Made by a program: the position numbers and the translations under genes
In this document: one piece after another, positions 43,750 to 62,212 of the stretch
Layout of the letters: each line of letters begins with the position of its first letter
Position numbering within the stretch: the stretch's first letter is position 1
Origin: Bacteroidales bacterium
GTDB lineage: Bacteria > Bacteroidota > Bacteroidia > Bacteroidales > JAFGXI01
Direction: 5' to 3'
NCBI GenBank assembly: GCA_016936665.1
Contig: JAFGXI010000010.1
Coordinates: 5,868 to 69,867, forward strand
Length of the DNA stretch: 64,000 bases
The notes under the pieces: model-generated
Databases searched by the model: none
Seen by the model: only the letters and a program-made list of their open reading frames with translations
Told to the model about the DNA's origin: nothing

Positions 43750-43750
43750 T

Positions 43751-46345: not shown

Positions 46346-46504
46346 TTTATTATTTTTAAATAATGTCGAAAAAAAAGATGTGCTCATTTCTTTGAGTATT
46401 ATAAAATCATCCGACATTAATCGATTCGACAATTATCAAAATTTGCTTTGTTAATAAACCCAATAGAATATAAAGACAAAACAAAAACTTGATAGCTGAT
46501 AACT

Positions 46505-46559: not shown

Positions 46560-47039
46560 TTAACAAATTAGCGTGCAAAATAACAAACCAAAAGGTCGCT
46601 TTTGCACAGCCTGTTCTATTTTAGGATGGTTTAAAAATAACTTTGAGTTTTTAACATCTATATATTCAATAGTGAGTAAAGAATTAAGTTTTAAAGGAAA
46701 TAAAACCCAAATTATTTGATTTTCTGTCTCATTATCAAAAGAAAATACAGGAGACTGAAAATACTCAGCATAGCATTGACAGTGATTGTTGCGTTGGTGC
46801 TCAACAGATGTTAAATCGCAAACATGATGTTTTACTTCGTTTAAATGACATGTGCTATGTTCTTGGCAACACGAATTTTGATGGTCTATGTCTCCAATCT
46901 CGCACATTCCTTCATAACAGGCATTGCACTCATGATGCTCCACAACAAAACCATGAATATTGAATAAAATAGCTAATAGAACAATCATTGCAACTGTTTT
47001 TCTATAAACTGTTCTAATATGTATAAGCTTTGAACTCAC
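46560..47039 (-). CDS. Cys/His-rich small membrane-anchored protein (putative metal-binding)
   Basis: An N-terminal hydrophobic helix is followed by a dense Cys/His block (HHECNACYEGMCEIGDIDHQNSCCQEHSTCHLNEVKHHVCDLTSVEHQRNNHCQCY). The start is uncertain: GTG at 47039 or ATG at 46988. Confidence 0.55.
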   Translation of the reverse strand: MSSKLIHIRTVYRKTVAMIVLLAILFNIHGFVVEHHECNACYEGMCEIGDIDHQNSCCQEHSTCHLNEVKHHVCDLTSVEHQRNNHCQCYAEYFQSPVFSFDNETENQIIWVLFPLKLNSLLTIEYIDVKNSKLFLNHPKIEQAVQKRPFGLLFCTLIC

Positions 47040-49864: not shown

Positions 49865-49900
49865 AAAAGCCTTCTGCAATTTGCAAAAGGCCAATCTTTT
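49865..49900. terminator. Imperfect bidirectional hairpin between convergent genes
   Basis: GCCTTcTGCA-ATT-TGCAaAAGGC, flanked by an A-run and a T-run. Confidence 0.5.
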
Positions 49901-49913
49901 AATTATTTATTTT

Positions 49914-50900
49914 TTACTTTCCGCTATCGGAAAAATATTTCATAAACTGAGCTCGCTCTAACATCATTGGATTTTTAATGTTTTTCTGATTCAATTTGCC
50001 TCTATATTCTTCAATTGAGGCATACTTTTTTTCATCCATCCATTGCTCTAATGCATGAACTGTTTCGGTAATATGAGAAGCTCCTTTTTCATAAATAGCA
50101 GAAACCATTTGTGTAGTAGTTGCCCCTACCAATAAATTACTAATCACTTCTTTAGCAGAGTGAACACCTGTGCTAGCCGATAAATCACAAGTAACTTTAC
50201 CGCTTAAAATGCTCATCCAGCGTAAAGTATTAGCGTTATCTTCTGCCTTTGAAAAGATTGGTGCAGCAACAATTTTTTCATGTTCGATATCTACAGCCGG
50301 GCTGTAAAATTTATTAAATAAAGTGATGCCTTTAATTCCCGTTTTTGACAATTCTAACATAAAATTGGCTAAACCAGAAAAATAACTGCTTAATTTAATT
50401 GCAACAGGAATTTTCACCACATTTAAAAGCTCTTTTACAATTCTTAAATAATTCTCCTCTAATGTTCTACCGTCTTTATCAAAGTCGGCAGGCATAACAA
50501 AAAGATTAACTTCTAGTGCATCGGCACCAGCTTGTTCTACATTTTTTGCAAAAGAAACCCATTCTGCATTGTCGAAACAATTAATACTAGCAATTACAGG
50601 AATGCTTACCGAGGATTTGGTATTTTTTATTAGCTGAATGTATTGATCTACAGAGTGCTTTTTCAAATAAAAACCTAAGTAATTTTCGATATGATCGAAG
50701 GTCCCTGACATGTTATTAACGCGCTCTGCATCAATATCCATCAAAATTTGCTCTTCAAATAAAGACTTTAAAATGATAGCTCCCGCACCGGCATCAGCCC
50801 ATTCTTTGTTTTTATCGGCATGATTAGTTAACTCCGAACTACCAACAATAATGGGATTTTTAAGCGTTAATCCTAAATATTTTGTTGTTAAATTAGCCAT
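49914..50900 (-). CDS. Dihydroorotate dehydrogenase-like FMN (TIM-barrel) protein lacking the canonical catalytic Cys/Ser loop; last gene of the Mrp-MBX-like operon
   Basis: DHOD class-1-like N-terminus (LGLTLKNPIIVGSSELT, IPVIASIN, GADALEVN). Where DHOD/DPD have N-L-S-C-P-N/H this protein reads NLFVMPAD. It has no C-terminal ferredoxin domain. Confidence 0.78.
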   Translation of the reverse strand: MANLTTKYLGLTLKNPIIVGSSELTNHADKNKEWADAGAGAIILKSLFEEQILMDIDAERVNNMSGTFDHIENYLGFYLKKHSVDQYIQLIKNTKSSVSIPVIASINCFDNAEWVSFAKNVEQAGADALEVNLFVMPADFDKDGRTLEENYLRIVKELLNVVKIPVAIKLSSYFSGLANFMLELSKTGIKGITLFNKFYSPAVDIEHEKIVAAPIFSKAEDNANTLRWMSILSGKVTCDLSASTGVHSAKEVISNLLVGATTTQMVSAIYEKGASHITETVHALEQWMDEKKYASIEEYRGKLNQKNIKNPMMLERAQFMKYFSDSGK

Positions 50901-50968
50901 TTTATATGTTTTTTAAGATTAAAAAAAGTTTGGCTAAGTTAAACTAGCTCAGCCAAACAATATAAAAA

Positions 50969-52774
50969 TTAACGTCCTTGATTTAAGAATTTATCAATAC
51001 CCATAGCTGCTCTGTGTCCGTTAGCAATACCATGAATTACGTCTGGTCCTTCAATAATATCGCCCCCTACAAATAACCAAGGTAAACCTTTAGCTTGGAA
51101 GTCTGCATCTACAACAATTCGACCTCTGTTATTAAATTCTATTTTAGATTTAATTTCTTCTGTTAAATAAGACAAGTCCATTCCTTGACCTATTGATTCG
51201 ATAACCATATCGCCTTCGAAAACGCGTTCTTCAGCTTGATCAAATTTTGGATTAAACATGCCTTTCTCATCGAATATCGATAGACATTTCCAAACTTTAA
51301 GCCCTTTAACTTTACCATCTTCGATGATGATTTCCTGAGGGCCGTATCCCGGAATTATAGAACAACCTTCTTCTCTTGCTTCAACAATTTCTTCTCTATC
51401 GGCAGGCATGTGCTCTTCGTCTTCTAGCGAAGTTGTAATCACATTAACTTTACCGAACTGTTGCATTTGAAGACGAGCCATAGAGCGAGTAATGTCCATT
51501 GCCACATTACCACCACCAATTACAACCACTCTTTCTTTTACAGGCACTGGTTTTTCGAGTACGATATCACGAAGTAAATCGACCGATTGGTAAACATTTT
51601 CGTTATCTGAACCGGGAATACGGGTCGAACGACCTAAATGTAAACCTGTGCCAGAGAATACTGCATCGTAATCTTTTTCTAACTGTTCCAGCGTGATGTC
51701 TGTTCCTATATTAACATTGTATTTAAATTCAACACCCAAGGCGGCGATATAATCCACATCTTTATCGATTTGGTCGTATGGTAAACGATATTCAGGAATA
51801 CCGTAACGCATCATACCCCCGGCTTTTGGTAATTTTTCGAAAATAGTACAAGAATACCCCAACAAGGCTAAATAATGTGCAGCTGATAATCCCGATGGAC
51901 CAGAACCAATGATAGCTATTTTTTTACCATTTTTAGCTAAATCGCCAGTACCTAGAATATCTTTATATTTATCGGTATCAGCCGGAATCTGATCGGCAAT
52001 ATAACGTTTTAACCAGCGGATCGATAATGCATCTCCAGTATGACCAACCGAACAAACATCTTCACATTTGTGCGTACAAATACGTCCACAAATTTCTGGA
52101 AGTGGATTAGTTTCGTATAACACACGCATACCTTCTTCCATATCGTCGTTACGAACTGCTTTAATGTATTCTGGAATACCCATATGCGCAGGACATGTTG
52201 CCGTACAAATACCGCAAGACACACATCTATCGGCCTCTTGCTGTGCCTGTTCTTTTGAATACCCTTTTACAAATTCTATAAATGAATCGCTACGCTCATC
52301 GGCATGTAATTCGCCCATATGAACGCGTTCTTTTCCGTAGAAGTTGTAATTTGGAACTGGCTTTCTCCAACCATCTTCTTTTTCGTACCAATCTTTAGGA
52401 TCAACTCCCGGAATAAATCTGAAGTTATCGGCATCGGTATCTACCCAAGTATATTCATTGGTTAATCGAAGCGAATCGGTTGTACAAATATCAACACAAA
52501 GCGCACACCAGCAACAACGACCATAATCAATCTTTGGTCTTAAGCCGCTGTCGCCACTTTTCGTGTCGATACCATCTACAGGTACCAAATCGATGGCTTG
52601 ATTTTCGCAAATTGCTTCACAAGTTCCACAACCAATACAAACATTGATGTCGTTATCGTGAAACCCCCTATATCTTGGTGCCGCTTCTCTTCCAATAGGG
52701 TTTTTAATGGTAACAGGATCTTTTAATACACCAGACCAAGCTGTAAACGGCGTAAATATATCTTTAATATTCAT
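50969..52774 (-). CDS. Fusion protein: NuoI/MbxN-like 2x[4Fe-4S] ferredoxin domain plus GltD/SudA/NfnB-like NAD(P)H-FAD oxidoreductase
   Basis: The N-terminal ~125 aa carry RYRGFH..CIGCGTCEAIC and CCWCALCVDIC (NuoI type). Next come the GltD-type Fe-S motifs CVSCGICTATCP and ICGRICTHKCEDVC. The FAD dinucleotide fold is KIAIIGSGPSGLSAA and the NAD(P)H fold is RVVVIGGGNVAMD. The C-terminus reads GGDIIEGPDVIHGIANGHRAA. Confidence 0.82.
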   Translation of the reverse strand: MNIKDIFTPFTAWSGVLKDPVTIKNPIGREAAPRYRGFHDNDINVCIGCGTCEAICENQAIDLVPVDGIDTKSGDSGLRPKIDYGRCCWCALCVDICTTDSLRLTNEYTWVDTDADNFRFIPGVDPKDWYEKEDGWRKPVPNYNFYGKERVHMGELHADERSDSFIEFVKGYSKEQAQQEADRCVSCGICTATCPAHMGIPEYIKAVRNDDMEEGMRVLYETNPLPEICGRICTHKCEDVCSVGHTGDALSIRWLKRYIADQIPADTDKYKDILGTGDLAKNGKKIAIIGSGPSGLSAAHYLALLGYSCTIFEKLPKAGGMMRYGIPEYRLPYDQIDKDVDYIAALGVEFKYNVNIGTDITLEQLEKDYDAVFSGTGLHLGRSTRIPGSDNENVYQSVDLLRDIVLEKPVPVKERVVVIGGGNVAMDITRSMARLQMQQFGKVNVITTSLEDEEHMPADREEIVEAREEGCSIIPGYGPQEIIIEDGKVKGLKVWKCLSIFDEKGMFNPKFDQAEERVFEGDMVIESIGQGMDLSYLTEEIKSKIEFNNRGRIVVDADFQAKGLPWLFVGGDIIEGPDVIHGIANGHRAAMGIDKFLNQGR

Positions 52775-52801
52775 CTTCTTAAATTTATTATTTATGAATT
52801 A

Positions 52802-53158
52802 TTATTTATTATTGTTCAAGACCATTGTTTTTCTGGATGCTATAAAAATGGATGTTAATGCCTTTGCTTCAGTTATTAATTCCTTAAGCAATTCTGGTTT
52901 AACTAATGCTTCATCTTTTATAAACTCTAACCAAAAAATACTTTCATCGGCCTCTTTAACGATATTTAATTTTGAAATAAAACTTTTCCCTGATTGTGCG
53001 ACACAAGCAACGCTATAAATATCTGCTACTGACGTTGAACATCTTATTATTTGACCACTGATATGTTTTCCTAAAGTATTTGTCGGCAAAGACAAACCCA
53101 ATTTAACACATCGGTGTGCAAATTCTTTTGTTCTCTCTATCAGTTCTTCTTTATTCAT
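52802..53158 (-). CDS. Four-helix-bundle protein (formerly 23S rRNA intervening-sequence protein family) inserted inside the operon
   Basis: 118 aa. The family pattern is ERTKEFAHRCVKL ... GKHISGQIIRCSTSVA ... SFISKLNIVKEADESIFWLEFI ... EAKALTSIFIASRKT. Confidence 0.8.
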   Translation of the reverse strand: MNKEELIERTKEFAHRCVKLGLSLPTNTLGKHISGQIIRCSTSVADIYSVACVAQSGKSFISKLNIVKEADESIFWLEFIKDEALVKPELLKELITEAKALTSIFIASRKTMVLNNNK

Positions 53159-53189
53159 TAATAAATATTCAATAATAAATAATCAATAC

Positions 53190-54386
53190 TTAGCGTTCGA
53201 TTTCCGGAGGACAAGTTTGTAATGAAACCATTAAGGCATGTATATCAGCAATATTAGTATTGACCAATAAATCTTCTAACAATGCTACTCCATGCGTATA
53301 GCTTGGCCCTCTTAAATTAACTCTTCGAGGTTTATCAGAACCATCTGTAACGTAGTACATTCCGTACTCTCCACGGCCACTCTCTATTCTAACATAAGTT
53401 TCGCCTTTAGGGATACGCCAGTTCAAAACGTTAGGCATTTGCGCTCTGATATCGCCTTTTTCCGGCATTTTAGCCATAATCTGACGAATAAGATCTACCG
53501 TTTGAATGAGTTCTTGCCAGCGTACAAAAGTACGTGCATATATATCGCCCTCCTCAGCTGTAGGAGGATCGAAATCTAATTGATCGTAAAATAAATATGG
53601 ATTATCTTTTCGCACATCTCGTTTTACACCAGAAGCTCGAGCGGTTGTTCCAACCACACCATATTTATCAACCATTTCCTTAGTTACAATGCCTTGGCCA
53701 ATCGAACGTTTTTTGAAAATAGCATTATCAAACATCAATTTTTTAATTCTAACAATAAAATCATCGATGTCTTTTAAATTATCTTCCATACGTGCTTTAA
53801 AACCTTCTGGTAATAAACCTCTAACACCGCCAGGAATAATATACATATGATACACACGAGCACCCGTTAATTCCTCGAAACGATCTAAAATAAGGTCTCT
53901 TAAATAAACACCCCATTGCACACCAATACCTAAAGAATAAGTCCCCGCTTGACCAGGTACTCCTCTAAGTAAACCTTGGAGACGCGCCATCTCTAAAGAT
54001 AACATTCTTAACCATTTAGCCATATCTGGTATTTGTTTATCATAACCAGAAAGCTCTTCGGTACAAGCTGCAATTAAATATTCGTTGGTGTCGGGCTCGG
54101 CCACACACATACGAATACTTGTAGGGAAGCCTTGAACGAACAAACGACGCTCAATTAATTTTTCGAAACCTCTATGTAAGTAACCCACATGCGTTTTACC
54201 TTCAACAATCTCATCACCATTTAGCGTTAGTTCCATTGCCATATTACCGGTAACTCCGGGGTGATTAGGCCCTAACCATAATTTTGTGTATTGGTGTGAT
54301 GACAAATCTATATTTAAACTGCCATCCTCATTGACAGAAGGATATTTACTTCTATCAGGTTTGAATCCAAAAAAATTATTCAACAT
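53190..54386 (-). CDS. NuoD / group-4 hydrogenase large-subunit homolog of MbxL/MbsL type (no complete NiFe site)
   Basis: LGPNHPG..., GYLHRGFEKLIE and the length match the Complex1_49kDa fold. The NiFe CxxC positions read RMCVAE and QTCPPEIER-stop. Confidence 0.85.
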   Translation of the reverse strand: MLNNFFGFKPDRSKYPSVNEDGSLNIDLSSHQYTKLWLGPNHPGVTGNMAMELTLNGDEIVEGKTHVGYLHRGFEKLIERRLFVQGFPTSIRMCVAEPDTNEYLIAACTEELSGYDKQIPDMAKWLRMLSLEMARLQGLLRGVPGQAGTYSLGIGVQWGVYLRDLILDRFEELTGARVYHMYIIPGGVRGLLPEGFKARMEDNLKDIDDFIVRIKKLMFDNAIFKKRSIGQGIVTKEMVDKYGVVGTTARASGVKRDVRKDNPYLFYDQLDFDPPTAEEGDIYARTFVRWQELIQTVDLIRQIMAKMPEKGDIRAQMPNVLNWRIPKGETYVRIESGRGEYGMYYVTDGSDKPRRVNLRGPSYTHGVALLEDLLVNTNIADIHALMVSLQTCPPEIER

Positions 54387-54948
54387 TTTTATTCTTTTTA
54401 GCAGTTACAGGTTGATTAGGATATAATTTCTCTCTCATATAAGTTGCAGGGTCGTTTGTTGTACGGCCACCACGTGGGAAGTATGTTTTTTCTGCATACT
54501 CATGAGTATCGAAATCTCGTAGCATATGAGGCTTATCTGTCCATCCTTCGAGTACGAAATTCTCTTCGACTCTCGGACTGCCCGGAAATTGGATTCCAAA
54601 GGCTTCTCTAATCTCACGTTGGTAAGTCCAAACCTGCTTCCAAAGATGATGTGCAGAAGTCATAGTAGGATTTTCTCTTTCGATCATCACTCGAAGTGCC
54701 ACATCACATCTTTGTTGAGGGTTATTAAGGATGTACGTTAATTGGAATTTGTTGTCTTCAATCCAATCGGCGCAGCTCATCATTACAAAATGAGCAAATC
54801 CTTCGTAGTCTCTCATGTAAGTAATGGCTTCGATAACCAATTCCTTACTTATGGTTGCAAACACCATGTTATCGCGCTGATAAATGATATCTTGCAAAGC
54901 ATATTTTGTATTTAATTTTTCAACTAATTCTTTCATCTTTACATCCAT
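54376..54948 (-). CDS. NuoC / MbxK-like 30-kDa subunit
   Basis: 190 aa, located between the NuoB-like and NuoD-like genes. Complex1_30kDa-like core (HLWKQVWTYQREIREAFGIQFPGSP). Its stop overlaps the NuoD-like start by 11 nt. Confidence 0.78.
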   Translation of the reverse strand: MDVKMKELVEKLNTKYALQDIIYQRDNMVFATISKELVIEAITYMRDYEGFAHFVMMSCADWIEDNKFQLTYILNNPQQRCDVALRVMIERENPTMTSAHHLWKQVWTYQREIREAFGIQFPGSPRVEENFVLEGWTDKPHMLRDFDTHEYAEKTYFPRGGRTTNDPATYMREKLYPNQPVTAKKNKNVE

Positions 54949-54951
54949 TAT

Positions 54952-55674
54952 TTACCAGTTATAATCAGGCATATTCCAATCTTTGATAATCTTTTTTTGA
55001 TTTGCCTTATACTCATCAAAGTTTCTAGCATACTCATTTGCTTTTTCTGCTTTTCCTTCTTTGATAAGCTCTTTTAATTTTCCGAAACCTGCTAATAGTG
55101 CTTCAGGACGTGGCATACAACCTGCAATGTAAACATCGACAGGAATGTATTTGTCTAATCGATTAATCGTGCTATAACTATCGTAATACATTCCGCCGTT
55201 AATGGTACAGCTACCAAGCGCTATCACATATTTAGGAGAAGGCATTTGCTCGTAACTACGAATCACCCTTTTCAAGGTTTTTACCGATAAGTATCCTGAA
55301 ATAATGAAAGCATTCGATTGACGAGGCGTAGGACGCATTTGAACGCCAAAGCGAAACATATCATAACGAGGAGTCACCAAAGGAGGAATTTCAATACTTC
55401 CACATCCTGTTCCAAAACCTAATACCCAGATACTCTCTGATCTTGCCCAGTTTAAAAATTTCTCAACAATGGCATTTTTTGGCTTTTCTTCTTTTGGACG
55501 CTCACCACTAAAATAGTCGTAAAGCGGGTTAATTTTTATGATAGAACCATCGGGTGCTACCACTTCTCTAACTTCATCTTCAGGTCTAACAAATGTTTTT
55601 TCGCTATTCTTTGCATTTTGCTCAGAACGCTCTAACATTTCTTGTACCTTGCTATTTATATTTAGTTCAGACAT
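54952..55674 (-). CDS. NuoB / MbxJ-like Fe-S subunit with only three cysteines
   Basis: Oxidored_q6 pattern: GFGTGCGSIE, RPTPRQSNAFIISG, LGSCTINGGMYY, PVDVYIAGCMPRPEAL. It has a ~70-aa N-terminal extension. Confidence 0.85.
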   Translation of the reverse strand: MSELNINSKVQEMLERSEQNAKNSEKTFVRPEDEVREVVAPDGSIIKINPLYDYFSGERPKEEKPKNAIVEKFLNWARSESIWVLGFGTGCGSIEIPPLVTPRYDMFRFGVQMRPTPRQSNAFIISGYLSVKTLKRVIRSYEQMPSPKYVIALGSCTINGGMYYDSYSTINRLDKYIPVDVYIAGCMPRPEALLAGFGKLKELIKEGKAEKANEYARNFDEYKANQKKIIKDWNMPDYNW

Positions 55675-55692
55675 TTTATAATCTTCTTAAAA

Positions 55693-56601
55693 TTAGAAAC
55701 TGTACATTAAAATGGCAATGAAACCTAATAGTAGCGGAATCTTGAAAAACCAAGCTACCGATTGTTCTATTCTGAAACGAGGGAAAACCATACCTACGAA
55801 CACAGCATAGAAATATATTAGGAAACTTTTAATGATTAATTCAAACCAATTCGTAGCACCACCAAAAACCAAATTCATAAATAAAATGGTTTCCATTACG
55901 CCAAGAATATTTCCGCTAGTCATTAATACACCTAGATATGTTCCATGGTACTCTGTAGGAGGTCCAATTGGAATTTCGTTTGGTGCTTTTACTAAGTTAA
56001 AAGGAGAATATCCGAAAGCTCCTAATGCAGATAACATAATTGCGGCAGAGGCTACAGGATTAGTAAAAAATGACCAATGAAGAAAACCGCCTTGTTGAGC
56101 AGCAACGATTTCTGAAATTGATAAGGTTTGGTACTGAATAGCTAAAGCAATAATACCCATAGTCATTGGCAATTCAACAGCTGCGTGTTGTGCCAAACCT
56201 CTGGAAATACCGATAGCCGAGTGAGGTTGTCCGCCTTCACCGGCACCTAAAGCCATACCTAACATTCCAAATAATTGAAAGTATAAGATGAGAACCAAAT
56301 CCCCTTCAAATGAGAAGTTCATCCAAGCTTCTTTTCCGAATAAAATTGGCATAAATAAAAATAAACCAACAGCACCGGAAAAACGGAAAACTGGTCCTAA
56401 ATAGAACATTACACCATGTGTTAAAGTTGTTCGAACAGCAATATTTTTAATTAAATCGATCCATGGCTGACGAAAAGGAACGCCGTGACGTCCGGCCATG
56501 CGAGCTCCAATTTTTCTGAAAGTAACTCGCATTAACATTCCCCAGTTTAACACAATCATTAAACCGAGAAATGTATAAGCTATTTTTACGTATATATTCA
56601 T
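55693..56601 (-). CDS. NuoH / MbxM-like membrane subunit
   Basis: A polytopic membrane protein with the NuoH-type N-terminal loop RKIGARMAGRHGVPFRQPWIDLIKNI. The ATG at 56599-56601 is preferred over the TTG at 56616. Confidence 0.8.
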   Translation of the reverse strand: MNIYVKIAYTFLGLMIVLNWGMLMRVTFRKIGARMAGRHGVPFRQPWIDLIKNIAVRTTLTHGVMFYLGPVFRFSGAVGLFLFMPILFGKEAWMNFSFEGDLVLILYFQLFGMLGMALGAGEGGQPHSAIGISRGLAQHAAVELPMTMGIIALAIQYQTLSISEIVAAQQGGFLHWSFFTNPVASAAIMLSALGAFGYSPFNLVKAPNEIPIGPPTEYHGTYLGVLMTSGNILGVMETILFMNLVFGGATNWFELIIKSFLIYFYAVFVGMVFPRFRIEQSVAWFFKIPLLLGFIAILMYSF

Positions 56602-56605
56602 GTTA

Positions 56606-59600
56606 TTATCCTCCAATAATTACAAGGTAAGTGACTAATACAAACAAAACGAGGTGAAGCATATATGCTTGTCCATTTCCGCTGTAGATACGACGGGTAA
56701 AGCCTGCTGTATCGTGTAGCATTTCTGTGACTTTATCCCAGAATTTTTCGACTAATGGTATCGTAGCTGGCCAAACAGCCTTGTAGAAACCGGCAAACAC
56801 ATTCCATGCAATGTGCGTTGTTTCTGGTCTATCGGGTCTTTCACCAGAAAATACAATATCAAATTGTTTAAGTTTATGAGCCTTTCTAGTAGAAATAGCT
56901 AGGAATGCAAAAGCAATTGCAAATACACCAACAACAGTAATAAAGACTTTGGTACCACTCCAGTAACCCAACGCTGTACTTGCACTACCAGCAACCCAAT
57001 TCACTTGTCCATTAGGGAAGTATGGTGCTAATATCTCTCCAAGAGGTTGTAATACCCACTCAGGCTTAACAGAGAATACCATGATTCCCATAATTAAAAT
57101 ATAAATCGGAATTGCAAACCAAATAGAAATATCTTTAACATTTCGATGATTATCTTTTAACTGCCCCAAGAAGATGGTGTGAATTAATCGCCACAAGTAC
57201 AAGAAGGCAATACCTCCGGCAAAGAAAACGATTATCCCTTGGAAGTACCATCCTTTATCTAAAACAGCGTTATAGAATAACCACTTACCTGCAAAACCAG
57301 ATAATGGTGGCACTCCAGAAAGTGCAATAATACCAATTAGTACTGCAATAAATGCAAATGGCATTCTTGAGATTAGTCCTCCCATTTTATACATATCGTG
57401 AGTGCCCACTCTTAGTACAACTGCTCCAATCGTTAAGAAGAGGATTGCTTTGTACATAAAGTGATTAATAGAATAGGTAAAAGCTGTTAACCAACCTAAA
57501 TGTGTCATAATGGCTAAAGCAAACACTATATATCCTAACTGACCGATAGAAGAGTATGCTAACAAACGTTTTGCATCTTCTTGGAAAACAGCCATTAAGT
57601 TACCAACTAAAGCGGTAATAGCACCTACCCAACCTAAAGTATAAGCTAAGCCCGAGAATTGATTATCGGCAGCCCCCATACCAATTAATGCGAGGACTAA
57701 ACCAAATACACCGGCTTTAAGTAAGATCGCAGAAACCATCGGAGAAACATCAGATTCAGCTTCGCCGTGAGCACCAGGCAACCAAATATGCAAGCCTACA
57801 GAAGCTGTTTTAGTTAAGAAGCCAGCGATTAATAAACCATAAGCCCACTGTGGTAAATAAGTAATATGATTAATAATATCTAAGTCGGAACTTATTTGAC
57901 TTACTTGAGCCATTCCGAAAGCTGCTAATAATGCATAAGCTCCTCCAATTGAAAACAACATGTAGCTCAAACCATGTGGCATAGAGCGTTTACCTCGAAT
58001 AATTAAGAAATACGAACCGGCTGTCATTAATTCCCAACCATAAAAGAACTCCAAAGTTGTGTTAGCTTCGATAATTCCAGTAAGACCGGCATACATTAAA
58101 ATAGCTACTGGATAAAAACCGGAACGAGTTCCCTTATATGCGTAACCAGCAATTAATGCTAAAATTCCACCAACCATGAATATCACTTCGAAGATCAACC
58201 TCAAATTATCTAAACTTGGATAGACTGTGTAGAAATAATATGCCATTCCGGCAATAGCTAAAGTGTTCTTTATAAAAATTGGTAAGAAATCTAAAGCTAA
58301 TAACACGGCAACAAATAAGAATGGAATAAAATTAATTCCTGAACCAATTTCAGAAAGTTGAGCTGTGTAATAACCTATGCCATATAAACTTAAAGCAGCG
58401 ATCCAAACAGGAATAATTTTTGACCATTCAATTTTAACCGGTTCGATATGGTCGTTTTCGGCTTTAATAGCGTAGCCTAACCAACGGAATAAATAAACAG
58501 CTTCCATCATTGAACCAAACAAAATGGCAACAACCCATGCTATATTACCAGTTGCTGTTAAGTCCATTACCAAAGTCCATTTTGCGAAGAAAGATGGAAA
58601 TGGAGGAAATCCGATTAAAGCAAAAACAAAAGTTCCCATCAAGAATAAGAAAAATGGATGCTTACGAACAACCGACCAACCTTTTAATCCTTTCGATTTA
58701 ATAATTCCAGATAGCCAAAACAATCCGGCTTTTGCCAAATAATGAGAGATTAAAATTCCAAACGCAATGTAAATGGTATTTTCTCCTAAAATATCTTTAA
58801 ATCCAATAATTAGGGTTAATAAACCAAGCTGACCTATTGATGAGTACCCAAGCATACGACGTGTATTTTCTTGTTTGATACCTAAAAGGTTGCTTCCTAC
58901 AAAAGTTATTGCTCCAAGTAAGGAGATATAATAATTCCACTCAGGACCGGCAATTGCCATCAATTTATATAAAACATATAATGAAGCTGATGCTGATGCT
59001 CCAGAGATTACCGCCGATAAACCGGCATCGGAACCTTCGTAAACATCAAGCCCCCAACCATTAGCAGGAAAAGGCTTTAACTCCAAGATAACAGCCATCA
59101 TTATTAAGAAGATCGCTATTGAACCGCCTTTTACTAAATGTAAGTTTGATGTAATTAAGTCATCGATATTTAATGAGCCCACAAAGTAATACGCAAAAAT
59201 AACTCCGATAAGTAAGAAGCTAGAAATAACACTGGTTGCTAATATATATTTGAATCCGGCACCCATCGAGCGAGTACCACTTTCCAATAAAATTAAACCA
59301 GCAATTGAGATACTCGCTATTTCCATGAAAACAAATAGGTTGAAAATATCACGAGTCATAATCATAACGTTCAAGCCCATCAATAGAATTAGATATACTA
59401 CTTGAGCATTTGATCCTCTCTCCTTCAGACTGTTAAACATATAAATTCCGCCGACTAAGCCTATCGCATTGACCATTAAAGAGAAGAATGCCTCAAATGG
59501 ACCCATTAATAAGTTAATCGACAAAGGAGGCTGAAAACCTGCTGTAAATATATATTCGGGCAATTGATTACCAGAGTAAAAACCGGCAAACCACTGGAAC

Positions 59601-59731
59601 GAAATAAAAGTCATAAACGCAATGGCTGTTAGCACTAATCCTCCGGTAAAATTTCTACCCAATTTATTCAATACACCAATGGCGAATCCTACGCCTAGAG
59701 CTGTGGCTACAATGTAAATAGGTGTTACCAT
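56606..59731 (-). CDS. Double antiporter-like subunit: two NuoL/M/N-MrpD (Proton_antipo_M) modules fused in one 1041-aa protein (MbxH-MbxH' equivalent)
   Basis: There are two separate Proton_antipo_M-like cores. The first lies around NLFVFMEIASISIAGLIL...YILATSVISSFLL. The second lies around WLPGAHGEAESDVSPMVSAILLKAGVFGL...LAYSSIGQLGYI, and LGYSSIGQLGLL also occurs in the first half. Confidence 0.85.
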   Translation of the reverse strand: MVTPIYIVATALGVGFAIGVLNKLGRNFTGGLVLTAIAFMTFISFQWFAGFYSGNQLPEYIFTAGFQPPLSINLLMGPFEAFFSLMVNAIGLVGGIYMFNSLKERGSNAQVVYLILLMGLNVMIMTRDIFNLFVFMEIASISIAGLILLESGTRSMGAGFKYILATSVISSFLLIGVIFAYYFVGSLNIDDLITSNLHLVKGGSIAIFLIMMAVILELKPFPANGWGLDVYEGSDAGLSAVISGASASASLYVLYKLMAIAGPEWNYYISLLGAITFVGSNLLGIKQENTRRMLGYSSIGQLGLLTLIIGFKDILGENTIYIAFGILISHYLAKAGLFWLSGIIKSKGLKGWSVVRKHPFFLFLMGTFVFALIGFPPFPSFFAKWTLVMDLTATGNIAWVVAILFGSMMEAVYLFRWLGYAIKAENDHIEPVKIEWSKIIPVWIAALSLYGIGYYTAQLSEIGSGINFIPFLFVAVLLALDFLPIFIKNTLAIAGMAYYFYTVYPSLDNLRLIFEVIFMVGGILALIAGYAYKGTRSGFYPVAILMYAGLTGIIEANTTLEFFYGWELMTAGSYFLIIRGKRSMPHGLSYMLFSIGGAYALLAAFGMAQVSQISSDLDIINHITYLPQWAYGLLIAGFLTKTASVGLHIWLPGAHGEAESDVSPMVSAILLKAGVFGLVLALIGMGAADNQFSGLAYTLGWVGAITALVGNLMAVFQEDAKRLLAYSSIGQLGYIVFALAIMTHLGWLTAFTYSINHFMYKAILFLTIGAVVLRVGTHDMYKMGGLISRMPFAFIAVLIGIIALSGVPPLSGFAGKWLFYNAVLDKGWYFQGIIVFFAGGIAFLYLWRLIHTIFLGQLKDNHRNVKDISIWFAIPIYILIMGIMVFSVKPEWVLQPLGEILAPYFPNGQVNWVAGSASTALGYWSGTKVFITVVGVFAIAFAFLAISTRKAHKLKQFDIVFSGERPDRPETTHIAWNVFAGFYKAVWPATIPLVEKFWDKVTEMLHDTAGFTRRIYSGNGQAYMLHLVLFVLVTYLVIIGG

Positions 59732-60105
59732 TTTAGATCGTTAAATTTGTTGATTTCTAATGATTTCTTAGCTTTATAAAGCTTCATAGCATAAGCCAAC
59801 ATTAATGCTGTAATACCAAAACCGATAACAATGGCTGTTAAAACCAAAGCTTGAGGAACTGGATCTACAATTTTATCTGCTACATTATAATTTCCTTCAG
59901 TAGCAATGGTTGCATCAATAATTGGTGCTGTTTTTCCTTTAACATAGCCTAAACTCACAATTAATAGATTAATACCTGTATTCAAGATTGAAAAACCGAT
60001 AATAATTTTAATAATATTTTTTTGAGTCAAGACTCCCCAAAAGCCTACAATAATTAGCAAAAAGCCAATTATCAAGCCGATATTTCCCAGATTTATAAAT
60101 TCCAT
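59725..60105 (-). CDS. MrpC/MnhC / NuoK-like small membrane subunit (MbxG equivalent)
   Basis: 126 aa with three TM helices and an MnhC-like tail (VDPVPQALVLTAIVIGFGITALMLA). Confidence 0.8.
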   Translation of the reverse strand: MEFINLGNIGLIIGFLLIIVGFWGVLTQKNIIKIIIGFSILNTGINLLIVSLGYVKGKTAPIIDATIATEGNYNVADKIVDPVPQALVLTAIVIGFGITALMLAYAMKLYKAKKSLEINKFNDLKW

Positions 60106-60106
60106 T

Positions 60107-60808
60107 TTATAACTCTTTTTGTGATTTTTGATACTTGTTGAGGATATTAGAAATCTCTGCTCCTACTTTTAACCCAACAAAACTGTATATAATAGGTATA
60201 GCACCTGCACTAAATAATTCGCCAAACTTACCCAAGCCAATAATTTTATTGTCGAGGAAACCTCCGGCTAATAAAATACCTAATATCCCAATTATTACAA
60301 ATGAAACCCCTGAAATACTCTCTACCCAGTGAATTACATTGTAATTTAATTTGATGTTTGGATTGGCTAATATCATTAAAGCAACACCCGTTGCGATAAT
60401 CGCTCCACCTTGGAAGCCTCCTCCAGGAGTTAAGTGACCATTTATGAACACATAAATTCCAAACAAGAAAATTACAGGAATAAGAATCTTTGATGCCGTT
60501 TCCAACAACTCAGAGGTATCTCTATGTTCGATGGTTTTTTCAAAATCCTCATCTTTAAGTTTTAAGAAGAATGCGATAATAGATGCTGTAAGGAATAAAA
60601 TAGTTACCTCACCAAGCGTATCGAAGCCCCTGTATGTTACAACTACAGCAGTAACTAAATTAGCGGCACCAACCTCTTCTGCACCTTTAGTTGCGAAATG
60701 CTCAGAAATTCCCGATAAAGAATCTCTAAGTTCGTATCCGTCGTACAAGCCGTAAAATAAATAGGCCATTACGAGCAATACTAAGGTCATTAATGTATTT
60801 TTAAGCAT
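60107..60808 (-). CDS. MnhB-domain membrane subunit (MbhE/MbhF-MrpB equivalent)
   Basis: Contains NLVTAVVVTYRGFDTLGEVTILF and GHLTPGGGFQGGAIIATG, both signatures of the MnhB family. Confidence 0.8.
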   Translation of the reverse strand: MLKNTLMTLVLLVMAYLFYGLYDGYELRDSLSGISEHFATKGAEEVGAANLVTAVVVTYRGFDTLGEVTILFLTASIIAFFLKLKDEDFEKTIEHRDTSELLETASKILIPVIFLFGIYVFINGHLTPGGGFQGGAIIATGVALMILANPNIKLNYNVIHWVESISGVSFVIIGILGILLAGGFLDNKIIGLGKFGELFSAGAIPIIYSFVGLKVGAEISNILNKYQKSQKEL

Positions 60809-61058
60809 TGGATCTTTTTATTTTGTTAAGTACATAAAAGAAAATCAAAGTCGACAATCCGCTACCAATAGAGGCTTCTGTCATAGCAACATCGGGAGCC
60901 GACATTAAAATGTACAAGACCGATGCAAATAATGACACAACTCCGGCAGCAATAACCGCAACCGAAAGTTTCTTATTCAGCATTGCTACAAAAGACAAAG
61001 CAAGACTTACAATGCCAAGTACAATTGCAATGATTATATAGAGTAACTCGCTATTCAT
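60801..61058 (-). CDS. MbhD-like small membrane subunit
   Basis: 85 aa with three TM helices and the APDVAMTEASIGSGLST motif typical of the MbhD / MrpA C-terminal region. Confidence 0.72.
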   Translation of the reverse strand: MNSELLYIIIAIVLGIVSLALSFVAMLNKKLSVAVIAAGVVSLFASVLYILMSAPDVAMTEASIGSGLSTLIFFYVLNKIKRSNA

Positions 61059-61425
61059 TTTCTGGTTCTTTTACTATGTTATTATTAATATCCTCTTTAA
61101 GCTTATCAGTTTTAGTAAGCTTAGTAAGCGGAACCTTCATAAAGTAAGCCGCACGCATTAAAACGTGAGATGATACGGGGTTTGTTAAAAGAATAAAGAT
61201 GATTAACACCAAAACTCTACCAACCCAGTTTCCATCGCCCCAATTTTCGTACTGATATAGTCCTACGCCAATAAACGAGACAATAGCGCCCAGCGTAGAG
61301 GCTTTCGTTCCGGTTTGTACACGATTATATACATCCGGCATCCTGAGCAATCCTATTGCTGAAACCAACAAGGAAAAAGCTCCCATGAGCAACATTACTG
61401 CTCCTAACCATTTAATCCATTCCAT
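61051..61425 (-). CDS. MrpG/MnhG subunit
   Basis: GLLRMPDVYNRVQTGTKASTLG is the MnhG signature region. Confidence 0.85.
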   Translation of the reverse strand: MEWIKWLGAVMLLMGAFSLLVSAIGLLRMPDVYNRVQTGTKASTLGAIVSFIGVGLYQYENWGDGNWVGRVLVLIIFILLTNPVSSHVLMRAAYFMKVPLTKLTKTDKLKEDINNNIVKEPENE

Positions 61426-61427
61426 AT

Positions 61428-61694
61428 CTACAAACCTTTTTGAATGTATTTAGCAACTACAATCACTCCTATAAAGCTTAATAAGCCATATACTATAGCC
61501 ACATCAAAGTAAATCATTCGATTACTAAGCGCAGCAACAATGCTTATAATCACTAAAGTGGTGATTGTTAACGAATCGAAAGCCACAACTCTATCAACGA
61601 TAGATGGTCCCTTCGAAAAACGAATCATAGCTAATAGCAAAGCGATAGTCATCATTGCTACAGCAACAAATACTAGAGTATCCGGACTAATCAT
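61428..61694 (-). CDS. MrpF/MnhF subunit
   Basis: MrpF pattern: LAMIRFSKGPSIVDRVVAFDSL. The ATG at 61692-61694 is preferred and overlaps the MrpE stop by 8 nt. Confidence 0.8.
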   Translation of the reverse strand: MISPDTLVFVAVAMMTIALLLAMIRFSKGPSIVDRVVAFDSLTITTLVIISIVAALSNRMIYFDVAIVYGLLSFIGVIVVAKYIQKGL

Positions 61695-62175
61695 AAAGCA
61701 CCTCCAAATATTTTTCAAATTTACTAACTAATTCTTTGGTTGCAGTTTCCACATCGGTGTGCTCAACATTAATCCAGTGAATGTAGAACGTGTCGCCTTC
61801 TACCTGCAATGTAAATGTGCCTGGCGTCAATGTGATTGAGTCTGCTAAAATTAATCGAGCCATTTTAGACTTTAATCGTGTTTTCACCTTAACAATACCC
61901 GGATTAATAGGTAAACTAGGACTCAACACACGTTTAGTGACATCGATGTTGGCTTTAATTAACTCAATTAAAAAAACACCTAAATACAAAAATGTGTATA
62001 AAAATGCCTTTGGCGTTAAGTTGATGCTTGTGAACAACTCACACTTAGAGCAAAAAATGAAGCTTAAGGCTATGGATAAACCGGAGCCAATCAATAGATT
62101 GATCGGGTCTAAAGTCCAATTAAGTAGCAGCCAAGCTATCATCAATACGACAAATGAAACGAACAAATTTTTCAT
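61687..62175 (-). CDS. MrpE/MnhE subunit; first gene of the operon
   Basis: Two N-terminal TM helices and the MnhE signature ARLILADSITLTPGTFTL. Confidence 0.85.
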   Translation of the reverse strand: MKNLFVSFVVLMIAWLLLNWTLDPINLLIGSGLSIALSFIFCSKCELFTSINLTPKAFLYTFLYLGVFLIELIKANIDVTKRVLSPSLPINPGIVKVKTRLKSKMARLILADSITLTPGTFTLQVEGDTFYIHWINVEHTDVETATKELVSKFEKYLEVLYD

Positions 62176-62204: not shown

Positions 62205-62212
62205 CAAAAGTA
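62205..62212 (-). promoter_or_regulatory. Candidate -7 promoter box (TActTTTG on the minus strand) for the Mrp-MBX-like operon
   Basis: The plus strand reads CAAAAGTA at 62205-62212, 30 nt upstream of the MrpE ATG (62175). Confidence 0.3.

Follow-up and report, generated by a model that had tools for sequence, protein, structure and literature searches.

Mbx-like operons that carry a gltD-type flavoprotein in place of NuoI were reported in Thermotoga and proteobacteria by Degli Esposti in 2015 (PMC4758237), and in T. maritima mbxA is upregulated 4.4-fold with S0 (PMC9431562). MBS is marked by a proximal cluster that has only three Cys ligands, in a shortened loop (PMC7684303, PMC8165549). The gltD-type mbx-like operon is therefore already known from genome surveys; what is added here is an undescribed gene for an FMN protein resembling dihydroorotate dehydrogenase (DHOD-like). 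The initial annotation of the locus did not recognise its composition from any characterised complex and none was found in the searchable literature, but the gene set itself is known (PMC4758237, the Thermosipho operon and the 80 loci described below).

The stretch of DNA analysed (the window; 64,000 nucleotides of a Bacteroidales contig) contains 14 co-directional ORFs on the minus strand, running from 62175 to 49914. The 13 genes originally claimed are the functional ones, and the additional ORF is a four-helix-bundle insert that the same annotation had mentioned. GldB, a T9SS sorting tail and the best-matching relatives, which belong to the Bacteroidales, bear out a Bacteroidota host. According to the ORF coordinates, and listed from the MrpE end of the operon to the DHOD-like end, neighbouring genes overlap by 8, 8, 7, 11 and 11 nt or are separated by 2, 1, 18, 3, 31, 27 and 68 nt. 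A terminator-like hairpin with an 11-bp stem (5 GC pairs), followed by a T-run (TTTTTATT tail), lies on the minus strand 22 nt past the DHOD-like stop codon (49868..49892). On the same strand a promoter-like TACTTTTG (62205..62212), 30 nt before the first ATG, fits the Bacteroidota -7 consensus TAnnTTTG; this promoter call is weak, as the consensus is not enriched across the whole window (78 found and 92 expected). Neither the sequences flanking the insert nor the 68-nt gap contain a TAnnTTTG element. The 14-gene run is consistent with a single transcript.

Every Pfam assignment predicted for the operon products was confirmed, with all matches exceeding the curated cut-offs, and the motifs LILADSITLTPGT, YRGFDTLGE and GHLTPGGGFQGG are present in the translations. 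The Mrp side begins with an MbsA/MrpE-like subunit (61687..62175; 162 aa; MNHE 1.5e-38), the gene for which opens every collinear locus. It is followed by an MbsB/MrpF-like subunit (61428..61718; MrpF_PhaF 1e-15), listed as 96 aa from a TTG start that gives a 32-nt overlap with the MrpE gene. The true start is probably the ATG at 61694, which reduces the overlap to 8 nt and gives a protein of 88 aa; the Tenuifilum homologue has 86 aa. Next are the MbsC/MrpG-like (61051..61425; 124 aa; PhaG_MnhG_YufB 2e-26), MbsD/MbhD-like (60801..61058; 85 aa; MbhD 7e-18), MbsE or MnhB+MbhE-like (60107..60808; 233 aa; MnhB 6e-24, MbhE 2e-8) and MbsG/MrpC/NuoK-like (59725..60105; 126 aa; Oxidored_q2 2e-25) subunits.

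The double antiporter-like subunit is a fused MbsH-MbsH' of 1041 aa (56606..59731), in which Proton_antipo_M matches two stretches (9e-81). Residues 7-260 match 6u8y_H (1.5e-45) and residues 479-1034 match 6u8y_X, which is MbsH' (2.9e-56). The residues matching E128 and K248 of MbsH' are kept, as are the Lys of TM7 and TM12, and the H' half conserves the pump Glu of TM5 and the pump Lys of TM7, TM8 and TM12; the fused form of ~1040 aa was found in 59 relatives. The peripheral arm is anchored by an MbsM/NuoH-like subunit (55693..56616; 307 aa; NADHdh 1e-40), whose best solved match is 6u8y_M (1.1e-34), with NDH, MBH and complex I at 1e-13 or weaker. It keeps the residues matching MbsM E203 and E211.

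In the peripheral arm, the MbsJ/NuoB-like protein (54952..55674; 240 aa; Oxidored_q6 3e-22) has an N-terminal extension of ~69 aa and a three-Cys proximal [4Fe-4S] site. Its motif FGTGCGSIE aligns without gaps to FCTGCGGIE of MbsJ, and the single motif Cys, together with the equivalents of C93 and C123, is present in all 69 NuoB-like sequences that were compared, the window's own and those of 68 relatives. The best solved match is 6u8y_J (4e-63), the next being 1.6e-40. An MbsK/NuoC-like subunit (54376..54948; 190 aa; Complex1_30kDa 1.3e-20) is followed by an MbsL/NuoD-like one (53190..54386; 398 aa; Complex1_49kDa 7e-65), which matches 6u8y_L at 1.3e-84, complex I at ~1e-54 and MBH at 9e-32. 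When aligned to MbsL, C94 and C392 of the NuoD-like protein correspond to C85 and C385, the vestigial NiFe cysteines, and the remaining two NiFe cysteines are absent. The His and Tyr quinone ligands of complex I are also absent, T46 and V95 occupying their positions.

A covalent link between the NuoI-like domain and an NAD(P)H flavoprotein, as first proposed, is confirmed, both being part of one 601-aa ORF (50969..52774; Fer4_7, Fer4_20 9e-30, Pyr_redox_2 2e-22). The N-terminal domain (residues ~9-145) resembles MbsN, the subunit on which ferredoxin docks, and has two [4Fe-4S] clusters (6u8y_N, 3.8e-21). The C-terminal domain (residues ~148-599) is of the NfnB/GltD type, with two [4Fe-4S] clusters, FAD and an NAD(P)H site predicted; it matches 5jca_L (NfnI) at 4.5e-74 and also 4ylf_B and 8oh5_C. 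A single family, NCBIfam NF010590/PRK13984, covers the full length of the fusion (878 bits). In an alignment of 13 sequences, down to 37% identity, 16 Cys in four cluster motifs are invariant, as are the FAD/NAD motifs GxGxxG and GGGxxAxD. In place of the YRR that marks the NAD site of NfnB, GltD and Stn, the window protein has TTSLEDEE, and the TSLE sequence suggests a preference for NADH. That the flavoprotein is the electron input side is a reasonable guess.

P. furiosus MBS (6U8Y) is the best solved match for L, J, M, H, H' and N. For L, J and M it leads the other solved structures by 20-30 orders of magnitude, and for the H and H' halves by less. The type first assigned, MBX/MBS and not mbh, hyc, ech or nuo, is thus upheld for all core subunits tested, and sequence comparison indicates that the operon encodes a bacterial complex-I-like, Mrp-containing pump of the MBS/MBX family. 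The position of the NuoH-like gene before the NuoB/C/D/I-like genes, also pointed out originally, is shared with the mbx locus of Thermosipho, where the same fusion protein occurs (55% identical over its full length) and a gene for a Rex-type regulator is divergent from the operon. Rex is an NADH/NAD+ sensor. Degli Esposti reports the gltD-type operon for Thermotoga; the fusion itself was confirmed here in the Thermosipho protein. In the best 80 species-representative genomes, from about ten phyla, all complete loci share a collinear core of 12 genes. These comparisons establish the gene set, gene order, domain architecture, cofactor-binding motifs, family placement and conservation of the locus. 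The closest relative (L003), like most loci, lacks the four-helix-bundle insert (52802..53158; 118 aa; 23S_rRNA_IVP 1.6e-8, TIGR02436 6.7e-15). Genes of its family occupy the same junction in 8 other loci, where they are 27-72% identical to the query family member; the insert probably lies outside the complex.

The last gene (49914..50900; 328 aa) encodes a DHOD-like FMN TIM-barrel (DHO_dh 9e-13), assigned to NCBIfam NF005741, 'dihydroorotate dehydrogenase-like protein', with 387 bits (cut-off 303). Its AF2 model (pLDDT 84.9) most resembles DHODA and domain IV of dihydropyrimidine dehydrogenase (TM ~0.7, 18-20% identity). The FMN-binding Lys and Asn are invariant among the DHOD-like sequences compared, whereas Cys130 and Asn132, the catalytic residues of DHODA, are replaced by Val and Pro, and neither Cys nor Ser occurs in the catalytic loop of any of 41 sequences (the window protein and 40 relatives). 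A search for a characterised close relative found none. The gene lies directly 3' of the fusion gene in 38 of ~71 informative loci, with a gap of 8-50 nt in most of the 38, and relatives down to 55% identity remain in the MBS-like operon. In some other loci CBS-pair or ferritin-like genes alternate with it. The protein could be a separate enzyme that is merely co-transcribed, in keeping with the lack of the gene at about half of the loci, which also means that it is not needed for core function. Although the original composition included it, the gene lies outside the conserved core, alternates with others and codes for a protein that misses the DHOD catalytic residue; it is a lineage-restricted accessory, mainly of Bacteroidota. 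Most likely it is an FMN-carrying accessory subunit or partner docking on the flavoprotein tip. The fusion and the DHOD-like protein together have the predicted cofactor set of dihydropyrimidine dehydrogenase (four [4Fe-4S], FAD and FMN).

The best explanation overall, to which we give somewhat better than even chances, is an ion-translocating NADH:sulfane-sulfur oxidoreductase with an accessory DHOD-like protein. Family placement, the MBS signature, the conserved chain and pump residues and the collinear core speak for it, and the S0 response of T. maritima mbxA and the Rex-type regulator gene beside the Thermosipho operon are hints in the same direction. FAD of the fused domain would oxidise NAD(P)H, and electrons would pass through the Fer4_20 domain, with its two [4Fe-4S] clusters, and the MbsN-like domain, with two more, to the proximal three-Cys cluster in the NuoB-like subunit, situated in a chamber with the NuoD-like and NuoH-like subunits. 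There sulfane sulfur (polysulfide or a related S-S compound) would be reduced, as in P. furiosus MBS, and the reaction would power both the fused MbsH-H', which would translocate H+, and the Mrp module, which would exchange Na+ and H+. We infer the acceptor, which way electrons flow, which ions are moved, the NADH preference and the physical association of the DHOD-like protein; the acceptor rests on homology, as no biochemical characterisation of a bacterial fused-type complex was found in the searchable literature.

Several observations count against this oxidoreductase. In the NuoH-like protein E193 and D196 of the five-residue MbsM 'charged axis' are replaced, and no acidic residue is aligned with E104. 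The equivalent of MbsL C385 is Tyr in ~31 of 79 sequences, so that the MbsL cysteines are not family-wide in bacteria; in P. furiosus MBS itself they are dispensable. No sulfur-handling genes (for example NSR, rhodanese or Psr) were found in the window. Some carriers among the 80 genomes are aerobic Rhodobacterales or Lysobacterales, in which sulfur reduction is less obvious. Electron transfer between NAD(P)H and polysulfide gives only a small driving force for two antiporter-like pumps and an Mrp module. In favour of the proposed function, transfer from NADH (-320 mV) to S0/H2S (~-270 mV) yields ~-10 kJ per 2 e-. MBH conserves energy with a drop near this, 12 kJ per 2 e- (PMC8165549). If the proposed function is correct, fermenting or anaerobically respiring Bacteroidota would pass electrons from NADH to sulfur, gaining a little energy and using no ferredoxin intermediate.

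The ORF listing of the window contains 14 consecutive ORFs on the minus strand between positions 62175 and 49914. The initial annotation had described a 13-gene operon; 13 functional genes were confirmed, while the ORF count is 14 because it includes an ORF for a four-helix-bundle protein (the insert; 52802-53158, minus strand, 118 aa). Each of the Pfam families named in that annotation is matched by the operon products above curated cut-offs and the quoted peptide motifs are present in the translations. As calculated from the ORF coordinates, the genes overlap by 7–11 nt at five junctions and are separated by 1–18 nt at four; the overlap of MrpE and MrpF is 32 nt if translation begins at the listed TTG, but 8 nt if it begins at the ATG at 61694. 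The insert is flanked by gaps of 31 and 27 nt, and the largest gap of the operon (68 nt) lies ahead of the last gene (49914-50900, minus strand), which encodes a 328-residue dihydroorotate dehydrogenase-like (DHOD-like) protein.

A strong terminator-like hairpin followed by a T-run (49892 to 49868, minus strand) is located 22 nt past the last stop codon. The element TAnnTTTG, which is the Bacteroidota -7 promoter consensus, was identified 30 nt 5' of the first operon ATG; since the motif is not enriched across the whole window, this is weak evidence of a promoter. The motif scan found no such element on either side of the insert or within the 68-nt gap, and this gap contains no terminator. A sigma-70 promoter scan returned 43 sites (50 expected), and the Rfam scan of the window identified only a tRNA at 6386-6458, with no riboswitch or leader ahead of the operon.

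The gene nqrA (62492-63841, plus strand; NQRA_N, NQRA_2nd and NQRA_SLBB domains) is divergent and starts 316 nt upstream of the operon, such that one intergenic control region is common to this gene of the Na+-translocating NADH:quinone reductase and the MBS-like operon. The rest of the window consists of housekeeping Bacteroidota genes (GldB, a T9SS-tailed subtilase, TonB-dependent receptors, SulP, CarAB, GyrB, Era, NadE and photolyase), and no sulfur-handling genes were found among the window ORFs scanned (most of those of at least 140 aa). A hemerythrin-domain gene and a heavy-metal-associated (HMA) domain gene (43423-44152, minus strand) lie beside a TonB-dependent receptor gene (44162-46432). 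ORFs without a Pfam match are located at 48884-49864 (plus strand, 326 aa), 46560-47039 (minus strand, 159 aa), 38286-38747 (plus strand, 153 aa) and 13741-14577 (plus strand, 278 aa), the first of which runs convergently into the operon terminator.

The membrane complex was assigned to a family on the basis of score gaps to the sequences of solved structures. Among these, the closest homologue of the NuoD-like protein is MbsL (1.3e-84) of the Pyrococcus furiosus MBS (formerly MBX) complex, PDB 6U8Y, followed by complex I (~1e-54), the membrane-bound hydrogenase MBH (9e-32) and formate hydrogenlyase (2e-17). The NuoB-like protein is closest to MbsJ (4e-63; next 1.6e-40) and the NuoH-like protein to MbsM (1.1e-34; next 1e-13 or weaker). 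The N- and C-terminal halves of the 1041-aa antiporter-like protein best match MbsH (1.5e-45) and MbsH' (2.9e-56), respectively, and residues 9-145 of the 601-aa flavoprotein best match MbsN (6u8y_N, 3.8e-21). The 6U8Y chains are thus the top matches for all subunits compared, with wide margins for L, J and M and smaller margins for the H and H' halves. Pfam matches in operon order account for the subunit set A, B, C, D, E, G, H, H', M, J, K, L and N, in which the NuoH-like subunit (M) precedes J-K-L-N, and the gene order is that of the mbx locus of Thermosipho.

A hallmark of MBS is that the proximal [4Fe-4S] cluster of MbsJ is held by three Cys only (C28, C93 and C123), in a loop three residues shorter than that of MBH, while MbsL retains two of the four NiFe cysteines, C85 and C385 (PMC7684303, PMC8165549). 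The NuoB-like sequence FGTGCGSIE aligns without gaps to FCTGCGGIE of MbsJ, with the non-ligand C25 replaced by Gly, and at the sequence level its cluster motifs hold only three Cys, including the equivalents of C93 and C123. The single-Cys GxGCG motif and the two other cluster Cys are invariant in all 69 NuoB-like sequences compared (the window protein and 68 relatives). In the NuoD-like protein, C94 and C392 align to MbsL C85 and C385. The vestigial Cys of the L subunit are variable in the relatives (C/A/S at the first position, C/Y at the second), which fits the dispensability of C85 and C385 in MBS mutants. Alignment to the yeast 49-kDa subunit NUCM revealed that the quinone ligands of complex I are replaced, the His of the beta1-beta2 loop by Thr46 and the Tyr next to cluster N2 by Val95; the tandem Cys-Cys of NuoB is also absent, the motif of the window protein having a single Cys. 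The pump residues of the H' half are kept (Glu in TM5 and Lys in TM7, TM8 and TM12). Of the five 'charged axis' residues, the NuoH-like protein retains the counterparts of MbsM E203 and E211, has Ser and Asn in place of E193 and D196, respectively, and has Leu aligned to E104. The NuoB-like protein (54952-55674, minus strand) carries a hydrophilic N-terminal extension (residues 1-69) that is absent from MbsJ, and this subunit differs in length from one relative to the next (Tenuifilum, 213 aa; loci L083 and L084, 235 aa; Thermosipho, 180 aa).

A hydrogenase of the MBH, Ech or Hyc type was rejected: the NuoD-like motifs RMCVAEPD and QTCPPEIER hold one Cys each, which leaves two of the usual four NiFe cysteines, and MBH is matched only weakly (9e-32). 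Canonical complex I was also rejected, as the quinone ligands and tandem Cys are missing and no NuoA/J/E/F/G genes are present in the operon or among the window ORFs scanned; these ORFs also include no hydrogenase-maturation or ferredoxin genes, in line with the initial annotation. Judged by sequence, the MBS-type scores, the three-Cys site, the L-subunit cysteines and the lack of quinone ligands identify the complex as an MBS/MBX-type enzyme, neither a hydrogenase nor canonical complex I. The same identification had been made at the outset and proved correct, with the 6U8Y chains closest and the MBS signatures present.

The 601-aa protein (50969-52774, minus strand) joins an MbsN-like domain to an NfnB/GltD-type flavoprotein. 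There is consequently no free MbsN subunit, the site of ferredoxin docking in MBS, as the corresponding domain forms the N-terminus of the flavoprotein. The C-terminal domain is closest to the NfnI large subunit (5JCA, 4.5e-74), Thermotoga NfnB (4YLF) and the Stn transhydrogenase (8OH5), with the glutamate synthase small subunit and dihydropyrimidine dehydrogenase (DPD) more distant. Pfam domains Fer4_20 (9e-30) and Pyr_redox_2 (2e-22) were detected, and a full-length NCBIfam model exists for exactly this architecture (NF010590/PRK13984, 'putative oxidoreductase'), against which the protein scores 878 bits, just below the 946-bit cut-off. In a 13-member full-length alignment extending to 37% identity, the 16 Cys of four cluster motifs, the FAD-binding GxGxxG and the NAD(P)H-binding GGGxxAxD are invariant; the invariant residues include C184/187/190/194, C229/233/237/241, G290/G292 and G420-D427. 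No NfnA/PyrK-like [2Fe-2S] FAD partner was found in the operon or in 85 related loci.

In the solved NADPH-using relatives (9bov, 8oh5, 4ylf and 2vdc), the second beta-strand of the NAD(P)H domain is followed by 'YRR', where the window protein has TTSLEDEE and a short insert. Since an acidic residue at this position usually accompanies NADH use, we infer that the window enzyme probably prefers NADH. The fusion family contains two types of nucleotide site (alignment A1, residues ~430-460): 'T[SC]LE' with a short insert is found in the window protein, Thermosipho and most relatives, and 'YRR' in a minority (the related proteins P0123, P0127, P0129 and P0138).

A scan of one genome per GTDB species revealed at least 580 confirmed relatives, some of which may be unfused because both search patterns fall in the NuoI-like domain. 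Of the best 80, most are full-length fusion genes, with a few truncated at contig ends; their identities range from 55 to 82%, and their hosts belong to Bacteroidota, Chlorobiota-labelled MAGs, Spirochaetota, Cloacimonadota, Neomarinimicrobiota, Fermentibacteria, Delongbacteria, Aminicenantes and delta-, alpha- and gammaproteobacteria. In a search over 1.8 billion representative proteins, full-length fused proteins fell into about a dozen clusters at 50% identity, one of them that of Thermosipho melanesiensis. When the loci of the best 80 of the at least 580 relatives were searched with 14 window proteins (tblastn), the 12-gene core, from MrpE to the NuoD-like subunit plus the fusion, was found in identical order in every sufficiently long locus, and an H-H' fusion of ~1040 aa is the rule outside the Thermotogota. 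The Thermosipho melanesiensis fusion is 55% identical to the window protein over its full length; the Thermosipho locus (L085) follows the 13-gene mbx layout, encodes H and H' separately and ends in a ferritin/rubrerythrin-like gene.

The operon is real and ancient. The initial annotation had not recognised its composition from any characterised complex; it is instead a widespread bacterial form, noted in 2015, whose 12-gene core is collinear in every sufficiently long locus among the best 80 of the at least 580 relatives. Bacterial 'mbx-like' operons with a gltD-type subunit were described in Thermotogota and proteobacteria (Degli Esposti 2015, PMC4758237), mbxA of T. maritima is up-regulated 4.4-fold upon addition of S0 (PMC9431562), and in the Riftia symbiont expression of a putative Mrp-Mbx complex accompanies that of the rTCA cycle. 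In the searchable literature we found no purification or assay of any bacterial member, no paper treating the Bacteroidota form of the operon and none linking Mbx with dihydroorotate dehydrogenase or a DHOD-like partner. What appears to be new is the Bacteroidota variant, which combines a tightly linked, non-catalytic-looking DHOD-like FMN protein with an NADH-type nucleotide site. Two of the operons have a regulator gene in divergent orientation, which is of Rex architecture in Thermosipho (Put_DNA-bind_N and CoA_binding; L085 475-1104, minus strand) and of the Crp/Fnr type in Tenuifilum (L001 265-954, minus strand). These divergent genes hint at redox or NADH control; no literature on Rex regulation of Thermotogota mbx was found.

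The insert belongs to the 23S_rRNA_IVP/TIGR02436 family. Genes of the same family, 27–72% identical to the member used as query, are present at the junction between the NuoD-like and fusion genes in eight other loci, and one locus has two copies, the second between NuoB and NuoC. The positions of the family genes are L011 9282-9620, L039 5559-5909, L028 9607-9891, L052 9450-9812, L053 9566-9901, L055 87-422, L059 9437-9769, L083 814-1185 and 3694-4065, and L060 408-770. A role as a subunit of the complex was rejected, as the insert is missing from most loci, including the closest relative (L003, 82% identity), and it is treated as a recurrent passenger. The shared junction, combined with the low identity of the inserts, could reflect a hot spot of repeated insertion or an old insert that has been lost many times.

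Among the best 80 of the at least 580 relatives, the DHOD-like gene directly follows the fusion gene in 38 of ~71 informative loci, mostly after a gap of 8–50 nt. Judged by their record titles, all of these carriers but one, a 'Chlorobi' MAG, are Bacteroidota, and the gene is absent from the spirochaetes, Cloacimonadota, Marinimicrobia and Proteobacteria in the same set. Conversely, every DHOD-like relative sampled, down to 55% identity, sits directly after a fusion gene. A 411-aa relative (P0322) was rejected as an informative fusion, as its extension looks like a mis-called start.

The DHOD-like protein has a Pfam match to DHO_dh (9e-13) and its NCBIfam assignment is NF005741, 'dihydroorotate dehydrogenase-like protein' (387 bits against a cut-off of 303), neither PyrD nor PreA. 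The AF2 model (pLDDT 84.9) superposes on the class-1 enzyme DHODA and on domain IV of DPD with a TM of ~0.7 at an identity of 18–20% (Foldseek). The FMN-binding Lys and Asn (K45, K169 and N196) are invariant. The DHODA loop NLSC130PN132 (counterpart in DPD, C671), however, reads NLFVMP in the window protein, and none of 41 sequences (the window protein and 40 relatives) has Cys or Ser in this catalytic loop. The protein has only two Cys and no ferredoxin domain, and a true DHOD or PreA was rejected for the last gene on account of the missing catalytic Cys/Ser and ferredoxin domain. With the catalytic residue missing and the FMN residues retained, the product is predicted to be an FMN protein that is neither a dihydroorotate nor a dihydropyrimidine dehydrogenase.

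Other genes occur at the same downstream slot or after the DHOD-like gene in the related loci, namely that for a CBS-pair protein of ~155 aa (23 loci, including L006, L011, L016, L017, L021 and L026) and that for a ferritin/rubrerythrin-like protein of ~150 aa (15 loci, including L038, L056, L057, L061, L062, L080, L082 and L085). In the 764-aa protein P0121 the flavoprotein continues at its C-terminus into a ferritin/rubrerythrin-like domain, an argument for the ferritin-like protein being a physical partner in those lineages.

The operon shares with P. furiosus MBS (6U8Y) the 13 subunit types in the order A-B-C-D-E-G-H-H'-M-J-K-L-N, the three-Cys proximal cluster, two vestigial NiFe cysteines in L, a full Mrp module and two antiporter-like pumps. 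It differs in that H and H' are fused into one 1041-aa protein, the NuoB-like subunit has Gly for MbsJ C25 and an N-terminal extension of ~69 aa, a DHOD-like gene is added, the host is a mesophilic bacterium and MbsN is fused to an NfnB/GltD-type flavoprotein; this last fusion makes NAD(P)H, rather than free ferredoxin, the likely partner. The NuoI-GltD fusion, gene order and three-Cys NuoB motif are shared with the mbx-like operons of Thermotogota and proteobacteria, to which family the window operon belongs. The Thermosipho mbx locus, by contrast, has two genes for H and H', a ferritin/rubrerythrin-like instead of a DHOD-like gene in last place and a Rex-like regulator gene upstream.

The C-terminal 450 residues of the fusion correspond to those of NfnAB, NfnI and Stn (4YLF, 5JCA and 8OH5; E ~1e-70 to 1e-79) in having Fer4_20 with two [4Fe-4S] clusters, FAD and NAD(P)H domains. 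Unlike these enzymes, the window system lacks an NfnA/PyrK-like partner and the 'YRR' motif, and its cluster chain runs into a membrane complex rather than ending at ferredoxin. In DPD and PreT-PreA a GltD-like module is likewise paired with a DHOD-like FMN barrel, and the inventory is the same (four [4Fe-4S], FAD and FMN); the window DHOD-like protein, however, superposes on DPD domain IV (TM ~0.7) with only 18–20% identity and lacks the C-terminal ferredoxin domain and the catalytic Cys, and the 8Fe ferredoxin domain, NuoI-like in this case, precedes the GltD-like module. Complex I (NDH-1) has homologous NuoB, C, D, H, I, K and antiporter-like subunits and couples pyridine-nucleotide oxidation to ion pumping, as the window complex probably does. 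The latter differs in having no NuoA, J, E, F or G, no quinone ligands and no tandem-Cys N2 site, in that its NADH-oxidising module is of the GltD/NfnB type and not NuoEFG, and in its full Mrp module.

The best-supported reading is that the operon product would be an ion-translocating NAD(P)H (probably NADH):sulfane-sulfur oxidoreductase. Electrons would travel from FAD along the four clusters that the fusion protein carries and reach the three-Cys cluster; S-S bond cleavage there, as in MBS, would power the H-H' pumps together with the Mrp Na+/H+ module. From NADH to sulfur the standard driving force is ~50 mV, or ~-10 kJ per 2 e-. The energy yield of MBH is 12 kJ per 2 e- (PMC8165549), so the driving force is small but similar to the MBH figure. 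An acceptor in the chamber other than sulfane sulfur, such as menaquinone, an organic disulfide or persulfide, thiosulfate or a peroxide-related compound, would make the complex an alternative respiratory NADH dehydrogenase. Thr46 and Val95 at the quinone-ligand positions, as in MbsL, and the absence of the NuoB tandem Cys-Cys do not fit such an acceptor, nor does the invariant three-Cys catalytic cluster, which is tied to S-S cleavage, even though Bacteroidota have menaquinone, the operon adjoins nqr and the window ORFs scanned include no sulfur genes. The conserved complex is also present in Thermotogota, Cloacimonadota and spirochaetes, which to our knowledge are largely without quinones; menaquinone is disfavoured by this distribution and by the missing ligands. 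The ferritin/rubrerythrin-like partners found elsewhere hint at an oxygen or peroxide link, and MBS also reduces an organic trisulfide (PMC7684303); overall, an acceptor of this kind is unlikely. Operation in the opposite direction, in which a Na+/H+ gradient or a low-potential donor drives NAD(P)+ reduction at the flavoprotein, is quite improbable. In that case the complex would be an ion-motive NAD(P)+ reductase, working either as the ferredoxin:NAD(P)+ oxidoreductase that was originally suggested for Mbx or by reverse electron flow driven by sulfide or polysulfide. The gltD-type subunit was taken as the site of NAD(P)+ reduction by Degli Esposti (2015), the Riftia symbiont that expresses the putative Mrp-Mbx complex together with the rTCA cycle is a sulfur oxidiser, proteobacterial carriers are known (L080-L082) and the small gap between the NAD(P)H and sulfur potentials would make the reaction easily reversible. 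The carriers, however, are mostly heterotrophic fermenters, no free MbsN-type docking surface for ferredoxin exists because the flavoprotein occupies the distal end, and a path from ferredoxin to NAD+ within the peripheral tip would skip the coupling chamber; the ferredoxin:NADP+ idea for Mbx has itself been superseded by polysulfide reduction by MBS (PMC7684303).

Docking of the DHOD-like protein on the flavoprotein tip is proposed because the two proteins together hold the cofactor set of DPD and PreTA (four [4Fe-4S], FAD and FMN), and an accessory role as a subunit or partner of the complex is the most likely one for this protein. It is possible, if doubtful, that it is instead an independent soluble enzyme that shares the transcript and is neither a subunit nor an electron partner. 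Its gene is missing from about half of the loci and, bar one 'Chlorobi' MAG, from those outside the Bacteroidota (best 80 of at least 580), it follows the largest gap of the operon and its product has no Fe-S domain for wiring. This gap of 68 nt nevertheless has no TAnnTTTG element or terminator, every relative sampled to 55% identity directly follows a fusion gene, and GltD-like and DHOD-like modules physically cooperate in DPD and PreTA; a housekeeping role is unlikely, given that the residues for DHOD chemistry are missing. The similarity of the flavoprotein domain to the bifurcating NfnB and Stn subunits raises the further possibility that its FAD bifurcates, with one electron passing down the low-potential clusters to the pump and the other to a high-potential partner, which in Bacteroidota would be the FMN of the DHOD-like protein. 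This would solve the problem of the small driving force by delivering a ferredoxin-like driving force into the pump, and the DHOD-like protein would fill the slot of NfnA (PyrK-like) in Nfn. Bifurcation is very unlikely, however, as the operon encodes no NfnA-like [2Fe-2S] protein, a DHOD-like partner is missing from about half of the lineages, which carry just CBS or ferritin-like genes, the same fold works without bifurcation in GltD and DPD, and no candidate for a high-potential acceptor was found. Equally unlikely is a peripheral-arm tip that forms a three-site DPD-/Nfn-like module, in which the FAD would split the NAD(P)H electron pair between the pump clusters and a substrate-reducing DHOD-like FMN; were this the case, flavin-based electron bifurcation would be wired straight into a membrane ion pump without a ferredoxin intermediate.

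If the operon product does function as an NADH:sulfane-sulfur oxidoreductase, abundant mesophilic anaerobes would own an energy-conserving NADH-to-sulfur respiratory enzyme; until now, work on this type has been confined to the ferredoxin-dependent enzyme of hyperthermophilic archaea. Among the carriers, which live in sediments, digesters and sulfidic waters, are Bacteroidales, Marinilabiliales, Cloacimonadota, Marinimicrobia and spirochaetes, and the budgeting of NADH re-oxidation and sulfide production in these environments would change. The complex-I-like chassis has gained a pyridine-nucleotide dehydrogenase module of the GltD/NfnB type independently of the NuoEFG of true complex I. For NF005741, a named but uncharacterised family, the tight linkage to an MBS-like complex provides the first testable functional context. 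Cultured carriers exist, such as Prolixibacter denitrificans DSM 27267 (whose locus L013 carries the full set of 13 genes, the DHOD-like one among them), Tenuifilum, Draconibacterium and Thermosipho, and they make the question directly approachable; the operon points to an NADH-linked sulfur respiration in common anaerobes that can be tested and may be important.
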